Below are positions 30,610-47,541 of a stretch of DNA of 64,000 nucleotides, piece by piece. The stretch is from IMG/VR virus record IMGVR_UViG_3300035208_004206, positions 1-64,000 of that record, one strand, 5' to 3'. How positions within the stretch are numbered: the stretch's first letter is position 1; each line of letters begins with the position of its first letter. A model generated the notes under the pieces. It saw only the letters and a list, made by a program, of their open reading frames with translations, made no database searches and had not been told where the DNA came from. The translations under genes were made by a program, and so were the position numbers. This DNA is from a virus (taxonomy: Duplodnaviria; Caudoviricetes).

Positions 30610-30755
30610 AGGTAGCAGAAAATCTAACACCTTTAACCTACTTTTGTCATTTTAACTGATGAAGTTAAAGTAGGAAATTTATTGTAAAGCTCGGTTCTTT
30701 ATTGTGCGAAAACCTCCTTACCATTGTAAAATATTAAAGATGATTGGAGGTTAAG

Positions 30756-38069: not shown

Positions 38070-38318
38070 ATGGATCAATACAGAGAAGTTATCGATCAGA
38101 TGTTCGGAGGCATTCATGGCGCAGTTGAGCGTCTTGAAATCATCGATACAGAGCTCAACAGATTCTTTGAATGGCGGAAGATCGTGAGTCTTTACTTCCA
38201 CGACTTCAGAGCTGGAAATTTCAAAGAGCTGATTGAAAACAATCCAGAAACTTTCTTCCTTCTTGCAAGACAGGCAGAACGTATTAAATCAACTCCGACA
38301 AAGTTCAAAAGATCCTAG
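38070..38318 (+). CDS. Hypothetical protein
   Basis: Starts 1 nt after the upstream stop. Confidence 0.6.
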   Translation: MDQYREVIDQMFGGIHGAVERLEIIDTELNRFFEWRKIVSLYFHDFRAGNFKELIENNPETFFLLARQAERIKSTPTKFKRS

Positions 38319-38382
38319 CGAACCCTCTCTCAAGTCAGTAGAATATTCTGTGTATGTAATTCACCACAAGTGGAGACGCCTC

Positions 38383-38889
38383 ATGAACCTTGGTCTAAAC
38401 GATTTCGCAACAACCCCCGAAGACATGCTTGCAGAGATGGGGAAAGATCCCACGGGGAAACCCAAAGACATGGATGAAGAACTTGGTGTTGATTTTTCTT
38501 TAGTTAAACCATTATATGACTATGTTCTTATTACATATGAGAAACCCGCTGAAGAGAAAGCCGATGCTGCGATCGCCGAGAAGAGAACGGCTGGTGGTAT
38601 CATCATCCCCGATCGCGATCTTCAGGGCAAGCAGGTTCGCAAAGCGGTTGAGAAAAAGTATCTCATTGCTGAGGTCGTTGCGACCGGTGTTGGCAACTAT
38701 GATATGAATGGAAAGGAACAGCCTTGGCCGTTCAAGATCGGTGACCGGGTCATGGTGCCTCGTCACGGTGGTCTCAACATGCTTTCACGGAAAGACCTCA
38801 AGCTGTATCGTGTGATCCGCGCCAAAGAGATCATCATGGTCCTTGGCGAACAGGATAAGACGTCTGGTGAAATAACAACGGAAGAGTAA
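38383..38889 (+). CDS. groES: GroES/Cpn10 co-chaperonin with N-terminal extension
   Basis: KPLYDYVLI, RTAGGIIIP, AEVVATG.G, KIGDRVM, R.KEII.V. Confidence 0.88.
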   Translation: MNLGLNDFATTPEDMLAEMGKDPTGKPKDMDEELGVDFSLVKPLYDYVLITYEKPAEEKADAAIAEKRTAGGIIIPDRDLQGKQVRKAVEKKYLIAEVVATGVGNYDMNGKEQPWPFKIGDRVMVPRHGGLNMLSRKDLKLYRVIRAKEIIMVLGEQDKTSGEITTEE

Positions 38890-40497: not shown

Positions 40498-40547
40498 GCA
40501 ATCACAAACAGTTGAACTTCGCGGGTTTGGCAACCGACTCGTAAAAT

Positions 40548-40637
40548 AATATGTTGTGGGCTCATATGTGAGAGGTTGCGAACGGCCCGGAGGGGTATCT
40601 GCTGTGTGACGACATGAACACAGCCCCACAACATATT
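40548..40637 (+). ncRNA. Candidate structured RNA, perfect four-way junction
   Basis: P1 40548-60/40625-37 (13 bp), P2 40561-64/40569-72, P3 40573-76/40597-600, P4 40601-07/40618-24; no linker nucleotides. Confidence 0.5.
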
Positions 40638-40659
40638 GTGTATTTTATGGAGGGTGTAG

Positions 40660-41373
40660 ATGGTTAGATTTATTACGATTGATGGGTGTGACAATTCTCT
40701 CAAGACTTCTGTCATCAACAGAATAATCGGTTGGGCGAAGTCTCTTGATCGTCACAATATCAAAGTTCTCAAGTTCCCGTCTGCTGAGATCTTCAAGACA
40801 GATATTGCAAAGCGATTGTTTGGTGACGGCGATGAGACGGCTCGTGGTGAGTTCATCGATCTCATCATCGGTGAAACAGAGCGTGAACTTGGTGCGGTTA
40901 TCAAACAGCGTCAAGAAGATCCTAATTCTATTGATGAGCACGTTCTAATAGATCGTCTGTTCATATCAACCCTTGTTTATCATGGAAGCGGTTACAGTGG
41001 CAACTATGAACTTGAACAGGTCATCACGCAAAAGTATGATGCGATGTTTGAACGTCTTGGTATCCACCCGGGCGATGTTTGGCACTATGTGTCTGTGTAT
41101 CCTCTGAAAACTTGTGACAAGGGCGAGACCGAACCGCTCAAGTTGAAGCTTGATGCGAAGGCTGACTTGTATGTCAAGAAGACCGAGGAAGTTTTGTATG
41201 GTATTATTTCTGGAAAGATCAGAAGTCCATATCTTACAAATATTCAGGAGTTTGTTGAAGGTCGTGAGGAGTACACAAGAAAAACACAGTTGACAGATGA
41301 AGAGCTTGATGTAATTGGAACCGCTCGAGCAAACGAAATCATATACGTTCACTTCTTCGGTCCTGACCTATGA
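40660..41373 (+). CDS. Thymidylate/dNMP kinase-like protein
   Basis: FITIDGCDNSLKTS (atypical P-loop), KFPS, IDR..ISTLVY. Confidence 0.7.
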   Translation: MVRFITIDGCDNSLKTSVINRIIGWAKSLDRHNIKVLKFPSAEIFKTDIAKRLFGDGDETARGEFIDLIIGETERELGAVIKQRQEDPNSIDEHVLIDRLFISTLVYHGSGYSGNYELEQVITQKYDAMFERLGIHPGDVWHYVSVYPLKTCDKGETEPLKLKLDAKADLYVKKTEEVLYGIISGKIRSPYLTNIQEFVEGREEYTRKTQLTDEELDVIGTARANEIIYVHFFGPDL

Positions 41374-41534
41374 TGAAATGGATATATCAACTTTGTTGTG
41401 GGTGGTGGTCAGGACATCATTGGATCCGTGTCTCTGAAGATTTCTTCAAACAGGAAACGGTTCTTCAGTGTACACTGTGTGACAAGATAGAAAAAGTCCC
41501 AGGTATAATTGCGGGCGATCCAAACGCCGAGTAG
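41370..41534 (+). CDS. 54-aa Cys/His protein (not in ORF track)
   Basis: ATGA overlap; LCC..SGHHW..CTLC. Confidence 0.55.
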   Translation: MMKWIYQLCCGWWSGHHWIRVSEDFFKQETVLQCTLCDKIEKVPGIIAGDPNAE

Positions 41535-41561
41535 AATAAATGTTACAAGCTTGAGGTGTTC

Positions 41562-44381
41562 ATGTACGAGGTAAGCTCCCTCCCGAAAGATTTTTCCTAT
41601 ACAAACGCGTTTGTTTCTCGTGGTACTCTCCATGTCGTTGGATATATTTCTTCTGGTGAAAAGATTTTCTGGAAGACCAAATCTTTTCCCGAGCTGAAGG
41701 TTTTCATCCCGACCAAAGGTGAGAACAGGGTTGCGACAAGCTACAAGAAAGGAATACCGCTCCAAGAGAAAAGTTTTTCCTCGATCGGTGAGTATCAGGG
41801 TTTTATGAAGGATAACCGGGACATATCGGGATTGCGAGTCTTTGGTGATGCTCCGGCTGAATATCTTTGGCTTTCTGCCAACGTTCCCAATGATGCTAAG
41901 CCACCGTTCCAGTTCCTCAACATCGGGTTCATTGATATTGAGACCTCGATCGGTAAGTCGTCACCCGAACCTGAGAAGGCTGAGCAACCAGTTAACGCGA
42001 TAACAACTTATTACACAAGGTCCAAGAAGTATTACATCCAGTCGTTGCGCGATCTTTCTGAAACAGAACGGATGAGTCTCCTCAAGAAAGTCCGGGCAAA
42101 GCTTGAACCTGGTGAAACGGTTGAAGTGTTTGAATATGCCGGCAGCGAAGCTGCAATGTTCGAAGACCTCTTCAGAATATGTCATGAGGTCGAGGGTGCT
42201 GATATTCTTTCGGGTTGGTACTCGGATGGGTTTGACTTTCCGTATCTCTACTTCCGCATTCTTCGGGTGATGGGAGAAGAGTGGGTCGGAATGTTCAGCC
42301 CGTTCGGTTCTGGTCATGCTCGTGATTACATGAAAGAAGATCGCAACGGAAAGCTTCGCCCGAAGATCTCGGTCAACGGTATCGAGCTGATCGACTATAT
42401 GGATGCGTTCAAGAAGTATGCGAATGAGGTACTTGAGTCTTATGCTCTTGATGCCGTCGCGATGCACATCATCAAGGAAGGCAAAGAGAAATCGGGTAAA
42501 ACGCTCCGCGAGCTTGAAGAAGGTTCATGGGATGATTACCTCTACTACAACTTCACCGATGTTCGGATCATGAAGAAGATAGATGAGAGCAGGAAGGGTC
42601 ATCTTATCAATCTTATGGTGATGATCGCCTACAGTGCTCGCATGAACTTCTCTGATCCCTTCAGTCCCACAAAGCAGTGGGAGTGTTTGCTCCGCAATGA
42701 ACTGAGCCCAAAGAACGTTGTCCTGGATCCCAGGGTTCGTTCCCAGCGAGCGAAGTTCCCCGGTGCATACGTTCACACACCAGAACCAGGGGTGCACGGC
42801 TGGACGATGACATTCGACTACAACTCCGAGTATCCCAAAGTCATCATGGGTTGGTGCATTGACCCGAGCAACCTGCTCGAAGATGATGAAGTGCTCGCGG
42901 CTTTCAAAGATGACGAAATCGCGTTGTCGTGTGTTGAGAACATTATCCGCCGTCGTGACGAGATGCCGACAGAATGGCCGGATGAAGATGCTGAAGCTTT
43001 CGGCAGAGCATGGGATGAAGGTCTGCTCGATGTGTTTGCAGAACCCAACGGGTTCTTCGATCTGAAGTTCTTGAAGGGTACCAACATTTGTGTGACACCT
43101 TCTGGTGACTTCTTCATCAAAGATCCTGAAGCACCGATACCCAAACTGATGCGGGTCAACTATGATGGTCGTCGTCTTGATAAGAAAGAGAGTCTCAAGT
43201 TTTCCGCGGCAGCTGAAAAAGAAAAAGATGCCGCGAAACGTGAGGAGCTCAAGTTCAAAGCCAAGGTCATGGACCTTCAACAAAATGCCAAGAAGGTCGT
43301 CCTCAATGCAGGATACGGTGCCTTTGGTTCTCCCAACTTCCGGTTCTTTGATGTTCGTATTGCACGGTCAGTCACGATGTGTGGTCGGTTCGCGATCAGA
43401 ACGGTCGGCAAGCATCTTGACATTCGGCTCAACGATTGGCTTGAGCAGAAAGCGAAAGAGCTTGAGGTGGGGTTTAAGTATCGTAAACGGATGATCTATT
43501 CAGACACAGACTCCACCATGCTTGATGTTGATTCGGTCGCAATGATCCTTGCTGCCGAAGCAGGTATTGACTTCAGAGCACCGGAGAATGCCGATGCTGT
43601 GTGTGACTTGCTCGACAAGTTTGCAGCCGAGGTCGTTCAGCCTTGGGTCGATGAGCATGCTGCTTGGGTTGCAGATCTTTTCAACGCCTTCAAGTGTCTT
43701 GAGATGAAGCGTGAGAAGATCGCCGACTCTGCTCTGTGGACCTTGGCAAAGAAACATTATGCCATGCACGTCATCGATTCTGAAGGTGTGAGATACACCA
43801 AAGAGTCTGAGCGTCGGAAGCTAAAAGGCGGGAACTTTGTCGGCACGAAGTCTCCGCTGTTCTGTAGAGAGGAGATCAAGGAGTTCACCTTCGCCATGCT
43901 TCAGTTGTGGAGAGAAGCCGGTGGACGGTTCAACCCTGGTGTGGTCGATCAGCTCAGGGCCAAGGTTGAAGAAGTTTATCAACGCTTCATATTGAAAGAA
44001 CCCCATGAGGTCGCGTCAGTCACATCGGTCAACACGATCGGAAAGACGACAGCAGATCAGAAGGGGGCAACGTGGTCGGCCAAAGCCGCGATCGCACACA
44101 ACAATTACATCGAAGAAGCAGGGTTGATACAAGAAGGTTGGGCGCCGATACACGATGGAGACAAGGTGAAGATCGTTCCTCTTCGTGGTGGTAACGGTCT
44201 GAAGGTGTCGCAGTTCGCTTTCATCAGTCAGCTTCCGGCAGGTATTCCGAGAGAGTGGATCGACTATGATCTATTGTTCCAAAAGAACTGGCTCACGGCG
44301 ATGGATGAGATGGTCAAACAAGTTGCTGGTGTTTCAATCGATAGGAATGGAACAGTCAGCGTTGATGAGTGTTTTGGATAG
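41562..44381 (+). CDS. gp43: Family B DNA polymerase (T4 gp43-like)
   Basis: Exo DIETS, FDFPY, YN..DV; pol motifs DYNSEYP, K..LNAGYGA.G, YSDTDS, KKHYA. Confidence 0.95.
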   Translation: MYEVSSLPKDFSYTNAFVSRGTLHVVGYISSGEKIFWKTKSFPELKVFIPTKGENRVATSYKKGIPLQEKSFSSIGEYQGFMKDNRDISGLRVFGDAPAEYLWLSANVPNDAKPPFQFLNIGFIDIETSIGKSSPEPEKAEQPVNAITTYYTRSKKYYIQSLRDLSETERMSLLKKVRAKLEPGETVEVFEYAGSEAAMFEDLFRICHEVEGADILSGWYSDGFDFPYLYFRILRVMGEEWVGMFSPFGSGHARDYMKEDRNGKLRPKISVNGIELIDYMDAFKKYANEVLESYALDAVAMHIIKEGKEKSGKTLRELEEGSWDDYLYYNFTDVRIMKKIDESRKGHLINLMVMIAYSARMNFSDPFSPTKQWECLLRNELSPKNVVLDPRVRSQRAKFPGAYVHTPEPGVHGWTMTFDYNSEYPKVIMGWCIDPSNLLEDDEVLAAFKDDEIALSCVENIIRRRDEMPTEWPDEDAEAFGRAWDEGLLDVFAEPNGFFDLKFLKGTNICVTPSGDFFIKDPEAPIPKLMRVNYDGRRLDKKESLKFSAAAEKEKDAAKREELKFKAKVMDLQQNAKKVVLNAGYGAFGSPNFRFFDVRIARSVTMCGRFAIRTVGKHLDIRLNDWLEQKAKELEVGFKYRKRMIYSDTDSTMLDVDSVAMILAAEAGIDFRAPENADAVCDLLDKFAAEVVQPWVDEHAAWVADLFNAFKCLEMKREKIADSALWTLAKKHYAMHVIDSEGVRYTKESERRKLKGGNFVGTKSPLFCREEIKEFTFAMLQLWREAGGRFNPGVVDQLRAKVEEVYQRFILKEPHEVASVTSVNTIGKTTADQKGATWSAKAAIAHNNYIEEAGLIQEGWAPIHDGDKVKIVPLRGGNGLKVSQFAFISQLPAGIPREWIDYDLLFQKNWLTAMDEMVKQVAGVSIDRNGTVSVDECFG

Positions 44382-45946: not shown

Positions 45947-45990
45947 ATCTTAAATACTTCTTTCTTTGACAATCTACGAGGTGATTAGCC

Positions 45991-46647
45991 ATGAGAGCAT
46001 CAACCCTCATGACCCTTCTCTTCGCGGTGACAACCATTGTTGTTTTTGCGAAAATTGATTTGAAGAGCGACACTGAACCTCCGGGTATTCGAGTAGGACA
46101 AGAAGTGTGTGAAGCGTTCCCCTGGGATCCTAGGTTCCTCCCTGTCAGTCAAAATGTTGTAAGGGTACACCAACCACCTATCAAACTGCACGAGGACGTC
46201 CAGGTTCCCCGAGCAGATGTTCCCAGCGGTAGAGGAATGCCGTTCTATGGTGAAGCAAGAGACACAGCCGATACCATCAGAACATATTTCCTTCAAACCG
46301 AGTATGCCCCGGTCGCGGACTACATTGTTGCAATATCAATACAGGAAACTGGGTGGTGGAGATCAAAGTTCCATCAAGAGAGGCAGAACTACTTCAGCAC
46401 GAAGATGAAACCCGACGGGGTGAACTGTATAAATGGAGAACGAAACTGTTTGACGACACATGCAAATGTTTTTGAATCGTGCGCATATGTTCTTAAGGGC
46501 GTGTTCAGAAAACGCCACTATGCAAAAGACCCCGAAGGATTTCTCAATGACCTTGGAAGAAAAGGATATGCAAGAGATGTGACCCACGCTGATAATGTTC
46601 GAGACATTGCAAAGCGAGTTACCGCGACCTTCAGAAAAAGACCGTAA
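45991..46647 (+). CDS. N-anchored glucosaminidase/muramidase (GH73-like)
   Basis: AISIQETGW..S..NYF..K; YA.DP; GYARD; TM N-terminus; TAAATA at 45951. Confidence 0.7.
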   Translation: MRASTLMTLLFAVTTIVVFAKIDLKSDTEPPGIRVGQEVCEAFPWDPRFLPVSQNVVRVHQPPIKLHEDVQVPRADVPSGRGMPFYGEARDTADTIRTYFLQTEYAPVADYIVAISIQETGWWRSKFHQERQNYFSTKMKPDGVNCINGERNCLTTHANVFESCAYVLKGVFRKRHYAKDPEGFLNDLGRKGYARDVTHADNVRDIAKRVTATFRKRP

Positions 46648-46655
46648 AATATTTT

Positions 46656-46892
46656 GAGTGTTTGGTGGGGTGTCGTTTAACGACGCCGTGATCATACACT
46701 TTTGCAGCAAGCGGTCAGCCTGATCAGCTGACGCACGTTTGTTGCATGTTTGGGTGGTGGCGGGAGCATGCACACCGCAGTCGATGGTGCAGACTGAGGA
46801 TGGCGTTAAAGCCTGTGAGGACCCTCAGACATCCTGCGCGAACATCGATGCTGTTTACCGACGGCAGTCAGACATTGAGCTGACCACCACCC
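46656..46892 (+). ncRNA. Candidate structured RNA of about 240 nt with three domains
   Basis: Nested helices 46656-701, 46703-746 and 46752-892; lies between a -10-like GTAAAAT (46644) and the next promoter (46920). Confidence 0.6.
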
Positions 46893-46951
46893 ATTCATTT
46901 TATCCACAAAATCTAACAGTAAATACTCACAACGAGTTGTGAGGTGTTCTC

Positions 46952-47541
46952 ATGCGGTTTGACCGGATGTTTTTCGAAGCAAGGATCGACCCAGAAGAAA
47001 AGAAAAGATTGCTGGATGAGATTGTGTTCCTTGATAAAACACAGACCCTTCTGTTTTCGAAAATATCTGCAACAAAGCAAAACGTGAATTCAAAGGTTTG
47101 ATCTATCCAGACGGCAAGGTTGCAGTGTGGAATAAATCTGGGTGGTCAGGCGAGTTACATTGGGAGCATGTTGCTGTTTCTGAACGTATTCATGCTGCAG
47201 GGGTCGAGAAAGTAAAACCGCTTGCTGCGATCTATATCAATGTATCAGATTATGAAGATCCTTTTGTGACATTTTCATCTTCAAACAATTCTTATTTTTA
47301 TCCGAAGTATCTTAGACACCATGGCGATAACAATGTATCAAGAAAACAAAGTGATATTATGTTCAACGCTCTCCCAACTGTTGATAGGATCATATATGAC
47401 AATAGAGAAGTTTCACGTAATGAGTGGGAAGATGAAAATGTAAGTAGCAATCAATTAGATATACCATTTGAAAATAACAAGACAAAGATATACAGTCGAA
47501 CACCGTCTGGACCACAAACAGCAAATATGGAGCAAGGGTGA
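46952..47541 (+). pseudogene. Frameshifted member of the MxFxRxLxE paralogue family
   Basis: MRFDRMFFE leader in one frame (stop at 47099-47101); family core KGLIYPDGKVAVW..EH in the -1 frame, open from 47038. Confidence 0.7.

Follow-up and report, generated by a model that had tools for sequence, protein, structure and literature searches.

A highly structured intergenic element with a predicted promoter of its own, probably a new non-coding RNA, in a phage genome fragment

In the phage record described here, the gap that runs from the stop codon of a glucosaminidase-domain gene to the start codon at 46952 holds a real and exceptional structured element of the plus strand, which is furnished with a predicted promoter of its own (Table 1). 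The element is probably a new phage non-coding RNA, and possibly an oversized regulatory cassette, and what is new about it is the predicted family of promoter motifs, called class 1, of which one member stands at its 5' edge. Phage non-coding RNAs are few and mostly unexplained, and rnaC and rnaD of T4 have been known for decades without a role. The element is an unusually clean candidate for such an RNA, with a sharply bounded and stable fold, a predicted promoter on one side and a late promoter on the other. If it is a free RNA, it would add a new fold to the small set of phage structured RNAs and offer a well-delimited molecule on which probing, tests of dimerisation and pull-downs could be carried out; a cassette would show that, in T4-type phages, the pairing of promoter and stem-loop can expand into a structured insulator of large size.

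The window, that is, the whole stretch of DNA that was analysed, covers positions 1 to 64,000 of an IMG/VR virus record of 72.7 kb that was judged 32% complete, and the long ORFs are all on the plus strand. The nearest relative of the family-B DNA polymerase (polB) among 5.8 billion proteins is just 38% identical, identity to cultured phages is ~27%, and a polB alignment search of IMG/VR returned 80 loci that are all 25-30% identical. With a nearest relative at 38% identity, the phage is therefore assigned, on its polymerase sequence, to an orphan, deeply branching and sparsely sampled T4-like lineage. Groundwater runs, possibly the source sample itself, and two landfill runs contain near-identical DNA, and no RNA run is listed among them; of the short contigs from four runs, one of 151 nt, identical to the window, spans 46772-46922, and none that is variable covers the element. 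The gene upstream of the element has a TAAATA late-type promoter of its own at 45951, and the hydrophobic N-terminal segment of its product is a putative signal or signal-anchor. Two relatives of this glucosaminidase-domain protein, P0001 and P0003, are 86-90% identical in alignment and share the same C-terminus, and they were found in Logan assemblies only. The gene adjoins internal-protein-like genes, much as the lysozyme gene e of T4 precedes ipIII and ipII.

Table 1. Features in and around the structured element, in window coordinates
Feature	Position	Strand	Remarks
Family-B DNA polymerase (polB)	41556-44381	+	matches T4-type polymerase PHROG
Upstream gene, 218 aa, N-terminal hydrophobic segment plus glucosaminidase domain	45991-46647	+	PF01832, E 8e-10
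Class-1 promoter (predicted): GCGA, 16 nt, GTAAAATA	46624-46651	+	predicted start G46656
Domain 1 (D1), 19-bp imperfect hairpin, UUA triloop, then UU	46656-46701	+	-22.4 kcal/mol, z -5.0, 0/200 shuffles
Domain 2 (D2), 17-bp hairpin, GCA bulge	46703-46746	+	-21.1 kcal/mol, z -4.25, 0/200 shuffles
67-aa ORF, TTG start	46739-46942	+	no SD
45-aa ORF, ATG start	46746-46883	+	no SD
Domain 3 (D3), five-way junction	46751-46893	+	-62.1 kcal/mol, z -4.1, 0/200 shuffles; pair probabilities 0.92-0.99
U-rich tail UUCAUUUUAU, directly after P1	46894-46903	+	candidate 3' end or terminator tail
TAAATA, core of a T4-late-type promoter serving the next gene	46920-46925	+	motif match
8-bp inverted repeat CUCACAAC/GUUGUGAG	46926-46943	+	-7.6 kcal/mol
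Downstream gene, member of an internal-protein-like paralogue family	46952-47541	+	ORFs 46952-47101 and 47098-47541

Bases 46656-46895 of the plus strand (240 nt) fold at -108.3 kcal/mol into three domains. The initial annotation, made by eye from the letters, had described the region as a highly structured and GC-rich stretch of about 240 nt, and both descriptions are borne out: the fold has a z-score of -5.6, equalled by none of 200 dinucleotide shuffles, and the G+C content is 55% against 44.5% for the record, which places the element at the 99.6th percentile of the window. The pairs of the minimum-free-energy (MFE) structure have a mean probability of 0.97, and the fold stays the same within a 320-nt context. 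Among 1,595 overlapping 240-nt windows, none reaches -100 kcal/mol, and relative to the GC-corrected MFE expected from these same-size windows the phased element is lower by 4.7 SD. Furthermore, the remaining 18 intergenic gaps of the record have z-scores between +1.2 and -2.2; the element is the most structured of the 19 gaps and of about 1,600 windows.

Every helix that had been claimed at the outset for the three domains is found in the MFE fold at the positions given. D1, whose first base is the predicted +1, is built from the helices GAGUGU/ACACUU, UGGU/AUCA and GGUGUCGU-UUA-ACGACGCC and contains four G-U pairs. D2 consists of an 11-bp helix plus GUCAGC/GCUGAC, with pair probabilities of 0.98-0.99, and its 7-nt loop, CUGAUCA, holds the palindrome UGAUCA. 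D3 is closed by P1, a 9-bp helix with a G-rich and a C-rich strand, UGGGUGGUG/CACCACCCA, and further contains GUCGAUG/CAUCGAU, GUGCAG/CUGCGC, CUGAGG/CCUCAG and GGC/GCC. Three helices beyond those first listed, GCGG/CCGC, GCUGUU/GACGGC and GUCAG/CUGAC, turn this domain into a five-way junction, with arms P2 (4 bp), P3 (7+6+6+3 bp), P4 (6 bp) and P5 (5 bp), only A46779 and A46866 as junction linkers, and an 11-nt P2 loop that includes the palindrome GCAUGC.

The 5' strands of D1 (46654-46669) and P1 (46742-46757) are direct repeats of one another, TTGAGTGTTTGG / TTGCATGTTTGG, 12 nt long, 83% identical and 88 nt apart, so that a single C-rich 3' strand can pair with either. An alternative fold in which the 5' end pairs with the 3' tail (46655-46668 with 46884-46897) lies only 6 kcal/mol above the MFE, and this alternative pairing may be a switch or a mere trace of duplication. 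The repeat was also considered as an iteron-like sequence, a possibility that was rejected because the motif is not enriched, with 3 matches against 1.0 expected.

The pairing itself carries a signal of strand. Among the 82 pairs are 10 of the G-U kind; A-C mismatches are absent from the helices, and U-U and G-G account for the two 1x1 mismatches. In a neutrally drifting DNA palindrome, the two kinds of transition mismatch are expected to be about equal, and the 10:0 split in this one sequence therefore favours selection on the plus-strand RNA; the earlier argument from frequent G-U pairs to RNA-level selection is thus a valid one, within the limits of a single sequence. The minus strand folds 17 kcal/mol more weakly, at -91.6 kcal/mol (z -3.6).

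No credible ORF is present. The region had been said to lack an SD-led ORF, and indeed its three possible starts, those of the 67-aa and 45-aa ORFs and an internal ATG, are all without an SD. Translation of the 67-aa ORF had been named as one of the observations that would speak against a non-coding RNA, and for this ORF no SD, homologue or gene call was found: it has no word in common with any of the 5.8 billion predicted proteins, a set that includes the gene calls of the source contig, from which the neighbour protein P0002 was supplied. The 45-aa ORF was not called as a gene either. When all proteins of the record were compared with the region in any frame by tblastn, only noise was returned, and a decayed paralogue or gene remnant was rejected on finding no resemblance to record proteins in any frame.

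The octamer of the predicted promoter at the 5' edge, GTAAAATA, is present five times on the plus strand, and wherever it is intergenic (four copies) GCGR stands exactly 16 nt before it. The resulting bipartite motif, GCGR-N16-GTAAAATA (GCGR-N16-GTARAATA), has 8 matches at one mismatch or fewer against 0.39 expected, 7 of them on the plus strand, and six sites are each positioned just upstream of a gene start (808-835, 30706-30733, 38318-38345, 40521-40548, 41511-41538 and 46624-46651). Because site 41511 precedes polB and site 38318 precedes a Cpn10/GroES-like gene, GCGR-N16-GTARAATA is read as a predicted promoter class of this phage, and probably the pre-replicative one. At four of the six sites a TG follows 4-5 nt past the octamer. 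The conserved box of the class falls at -33 to -30, in addition to a -10 element, and is unlike the MotA box of T4; no MotA domain was found in this 32%-complete fragment.

At the element, the promoter site ends 5 nt before helix 1, a position that predicts transcription to start at G46656, the first base of the D1 helix, and the stop codon of the glucosaminidase gene, TAA (46645-46647), lies inside the -10 element. This -10 element, TAAAAT, is a good one; the -35 position is occupied by CCGCGA, with 2 of 6 matches to TTGACA, and the site was not called by a scan for the sigma-70 consensus. We infer promoter activity at 46624-46651 from the motif. The other five class-1 promoters lie upstream of protein genes and would give leaders of roughly 10-110 nt. 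After the one at 40521 there likewise comes a structured element, a 92-nt three-hairpin junction (40549-40640, -35.1 kcal/mol, z -2.7) whose closing helix of 12 bp, G-rich on one strand and C-rich on the other, begins at about +1. This smaller element stops some 10 nt short of the SD that serves the gene at 40660 and is probably a structured 5' leader.

On the 3' side, the U-rich tail that follows P1 is the place at which transcription would be expected to end and the 3' end of the RNA to be formed. This phage shows no excess of simple intrinsic terminators, and the terminator scan cannot score a multibranch stem. Beyond the tail stands a TAAATA motif, a hexamer that occurs 22 times on the plus strand against 6 on the minus strand, in most cases 25-45 nt ahead of an SD with its start codon, and that is interpreted as a shortened form of the T4 late promoter TATAAATA, marking late genes. 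Sites of this kind include 20219, 20755, 45951, 46920, 48102, 56979 and 57473 and, in the record, 65803, 70011 and 72132.

The inverted repeat that follows the TAAATA motif covers, with its 3' arm, the first three bases of the SD of the next gene, GAGG (46941-46944), and the hairpin taken alone is not significant (z -0.7). A late transcript beginning at about 46931 would be without the 5' arm, and would be free of the hairpin. The same order, a late promoter right upstream of an SD-covering hairpin, is found at the T4 genes e, soc, 49 and I-TevI (PMC3014915), an arrangement that sequesters the ribosome-binding site so that long early transcripts are silent and late ones translatable (PMC3014915). 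The likeness covers 46920-46955 and not the 240-nt element, and the hairpin is weak here. As for the gene so preceded, it is split in this assembly by a 1-base frameshift, with the break near 47035; in a landfill contig (run X3), one more A follows 47035 and brings the two frames together, so that the break reflects either a difference between strains or a mistake of assembly and not a fixed pseudogene.

The fold, the strand signal, the absence of coding capacity and a predicted promoter that would set the start on the first helix jointly point to a dedicated structured-RNA transcription unit. The preferred reading, held tentatively and with somewhat less than even confidence, is a separately transcribed, pre-replicative and stable non-coding RNA of about 245 nt. 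Transcription would be driven by the class-1 promoter at 46624-46651, of the same bipartite type as those before the polB and GroES-like genes, and would start at G46656, the first base of helix 1. The RNA would fold as it is transcribed into three independent domains, namely two long hairpins and a 145-nt five-way junction, and most transcripts would end at the U-rich tail, at about 46895-46905, to give the RNA of about 245 nt. With both of its ends locked in helices, such an RNA should be long-lived. Read-through transcripts would be poor templates for expression of the next gene, as they would carry the hairpin over its SD, which would be missing solely from late transcripts that start from TAAATA (46920). 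An RNA that is early and stable would presumably act by binding, and its likeliest target would be a protein or RNA met in the pre-replicative phase. The 5' end of the RNA, its stability and its function are thus what we infer from these features.

Several observations temper this reading. The element is a single sequence with no homologue in the collections searched, the other five class-1 promoters drive protein genes, and the structured leader after promoter 40521 makes a long leader the simpler analogy. The tail is not a textbook terminator in a phage where simple terminators are not enriched, and the hairpin over the SD is insignificant on its own. On the other side, a late promoter of its own serves gene 46952, which therefore needs no such leader, and this supports a separate RNA.

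The only hint of a target for such an RNA comes from its loops. The P2 loop and the P3 internal loop are complementary to the start region of gene 46952, which ranks first of 93 start regions, with 8 of 1000 shuffles as good; the match was found post hoc, after many features had been examined, which also counts against giving it weight in favour of a separate RNA. A complementarity that extends across the paralogue family was considered and vanishes on inspection, with gene 46952 alone standing out. In addition, the palindromic loops UGAUCA (D2) and GCAUGC (P2) cannot pair within the monomer, and by our own estimate about 0.25 such loops would be expected. Two palindromic apical loops could support RNA dimers, which is suggestive only.

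A bolder form of the separate-RNA reading, and a doubtful one, would make the element the founding member of a new class of early phage RNAs that are nuclease-resistant, ~245 nt long, self-pairing through their palindromic loops and trans-acting. The role in trans might, for example, be to draw off a host defence or RNA-processing protein as a decoy or sponge, or to silence packaged internal-protein genes until late infection.

The alternative that survives best, possible if on balance unlikely, is that the element acts in cis, either as an enlarged analogue of the promoter-early stem-loop (PeSL) cassettes of T4-type phages or as a stabilising or regulatory 5' leader for gene 46952. In the PeSL-like version, the hairpins with their G-tracts and C-tracts would stop or attenuate early transcription, arriving from upstream as well as from the element's own promoter, before it reached the late internal-protein-like genes. 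PeSLs join an early promoter to a stem-loop, often of the polyG...polyC type, and they are terminators that have been proposed to block late-virion-gene spill-over (Arbiol et al. 2010, PMC2839356); PeSL-like elements also flank the internal-protein loci of T-even phages (PMC2839356). The element resembles them in logic and in neighbourhood: an early-type promoter in an intergenic gap stands next to a G-tract/C-tract stem-loop, the upstream stop codon lies within the cassette, an SD and start codon follow it, and there is an association with internal-protein genes and the proposed insulation before late genes (PMC2839356). P1 in the present element reads GGGUGGUGG/CCACCACCC, and the gene that comes next is internal-protein-like. 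The leader version draws on the other five class-1 promoters, which drive mRNAs, on the 92-nt leader after promoter 40521, which is likewise structured from +1, and on the complementarity of two loops to the next gene's start region.

There are also differences from a PeSL. A PeSL is a single simple hairpin within ~100 bp, in most cases placed over the promoter boxes or between them, and is present in about 50 copies per genome dispersed so as to flank ORFans, whereas the element has three domains and 82 bp over 240 nt, all of it downstream of the predicted start, and its structured part is single-copy, with only the promoter recurring (six sites). PeSL promoters conform to the sigma-70 consensus and have an AT-rich upstream region; the predicted promoter here agrees with that consensus at its -10 but departs from it at its -35 (GCGR). 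Furthermore, a promoter that fires straight into its own insulator needs a further reason to exist, and the next gene is already served by its own late promoter.

A structured 3' UTR, in which D1-D3 would terminate and protect the glucosaminidase gene's late mRNA while the promoter motif would have no bearing or be weak, is improbable. The structure does start 9 nt past the stop codon, U residues follow D1 and a U-rich tail follows D3, and the late promoter of the upstream gene implies that late transcripts enter the region. However, the promoter match is exact, with its -10 overlapping the stop codon and its start on helix 1, three domains over 240 nt far exceed what protection of a 3' end requires, and nothing comparable is present at any other gene end of the record.

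It is very unlikely that the region is instead a replication origin of the T4 type, with a pre-replicative promoter among late genes whose non-coding transcript would form an R-loop that primes DNA synthesis, the hybrid being favoured by G-rich runs. The T4 origins oriF and oriG pair a middle-mode promoter with a downstream element, and the transcript primes replication (PMC3016281); the element's promoter is an orphan of the replication-gene class among late genes, its transcript has G-rich runs, and there is the direct repeat of D1 and P1, TTGAGTGTTTGG / TTGCATGTTTGG. Nevertheless, the downstream unwinding element of T4 is A+T-rich (PMC3016281), whereas here 240 nt at 55% G+C fall in the top 0.4% of the window. 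Strong self-folding of the RNA would compete with an R-loop, the G-U asymmetry points to RNA-level selection, and the repeat motif is not enriched, at 3 matches against 1.0 expected.

Finally, that the region encodes a small protein (the 67-aa or 45-aa ORF) or is a decayed gene with an incidentally stable fold can be given hardly any credence, for although the ORFs exist, their TTG and ATG starts have no SD, neither was called as a gene, the 67-aa ORF has no homologue in the 5.8 billion proteins and tblastn gave noise only, and three separate domains each beat all shuffles.

Searches for known families and for relatives were extensive. The initial annotation had recognised no tmRNA, RNase P, SRP, 6S or ribozyme core, in agreement with Rfam 15, which gives 0 matches at gathering score over the whole window. 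When the threshold was relaxed to E<=10 over 46400-47200, RydC at 15 bits (gathering 48) and sR7 at 11.5 bits (gathering 37) appeared, both on the minus strand, and these matches are noise. A tRNA, tmRNA or tRNA-like identity was rejected, with 0 genes found by ARAGORN in the window and no T-arm consensus in the fold. The element is single-copy in its own 72.7-kb record, and blastn against phages and plasmids found no homologue.

Neighbouring genes were also used as routes to a relative. The glucosaminidase protein and its alignment led to no neighbouring homologue of the element in viral_contigs or metagenome_contigs, and polB alone gave no route to one in viral_contigs. Covariance models of D3 (R1) and of D1+D2 (R2), run over 80 polB loci, retrieved the element itself only, and R1 had no match in 30 whole viral records. 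Structure-anchored DNA patterns gave 51 viral and 4 metagenome matches, all due to chance or low complexity, while a structure-anchored pattern in genome_contigs and a D1+D2 pattern had no matches. With its filters off, R1 found nothing in the rIII-30.9 gap of five T4-like phages or in T4, a weak test for a model built from one sequence. The element is known from one sequence, and a relative is absent from all collections searched.

Among known phage RNAs, the nearest in kind are rnaC and rnaD of T4, small RNAs that are likewise absent from Rfam, having no family there. They are stable non-coding RNAs of 139 and 119 nt, also called species 1 and 2, with roles unknown (PMC3014915), and come from the tRNA region of T4, whose tRNAs are middle-class genes. 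They share with the element a broad genome neighbourhood that includes lysozyme and internal-protein genes. The locus of rnaC and rnaD (L133 6909-7172) had no match to R1 with filters off or to R2 with default filters, both being models from one sequence, and the best R1 match there was to a tRNA-Ser, at E 0.12. Unlike rnaC, which has a tRNA-type T arm and lies beside tRNA genes, the element has no T arm, and there is no tRNA gene in the 64-kb window. The element further differs from the pair in having its own promoter motif and in being much more GC-rich and stable.

A second likeness is to GOLLD, ROOL, raiA and HEARO, with which the element has in common a complex multi-helix junction, no known protein partner and a phage context. 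These are ornate orphan RNAs, often phage-linked, that self-assemble by loop contacts (PMC12286853). The element is much smaller and has no Rfam match to any of them. By prediction, its palindromic loops UGAUCA and GCAUGC could form kissing dimers, comparable to the loop contacts of the GOLLD type.

Under any reading of the element, the two motifs GCGR-N16-GTARAATA and TAAATA make the fragment annotatable by expression class. They also bear on individual gene models. The ORF at 38233-38889 (TTG start at 38233) is probably over-extended, as a class-1 promoter lies within it at 38318 and an SD-led ATG at 38383; from this ATG it would encode a 168-aa Cpn10/GroES-like protein (PF00166, E 5e-12), the counterpart of T4 gp31.
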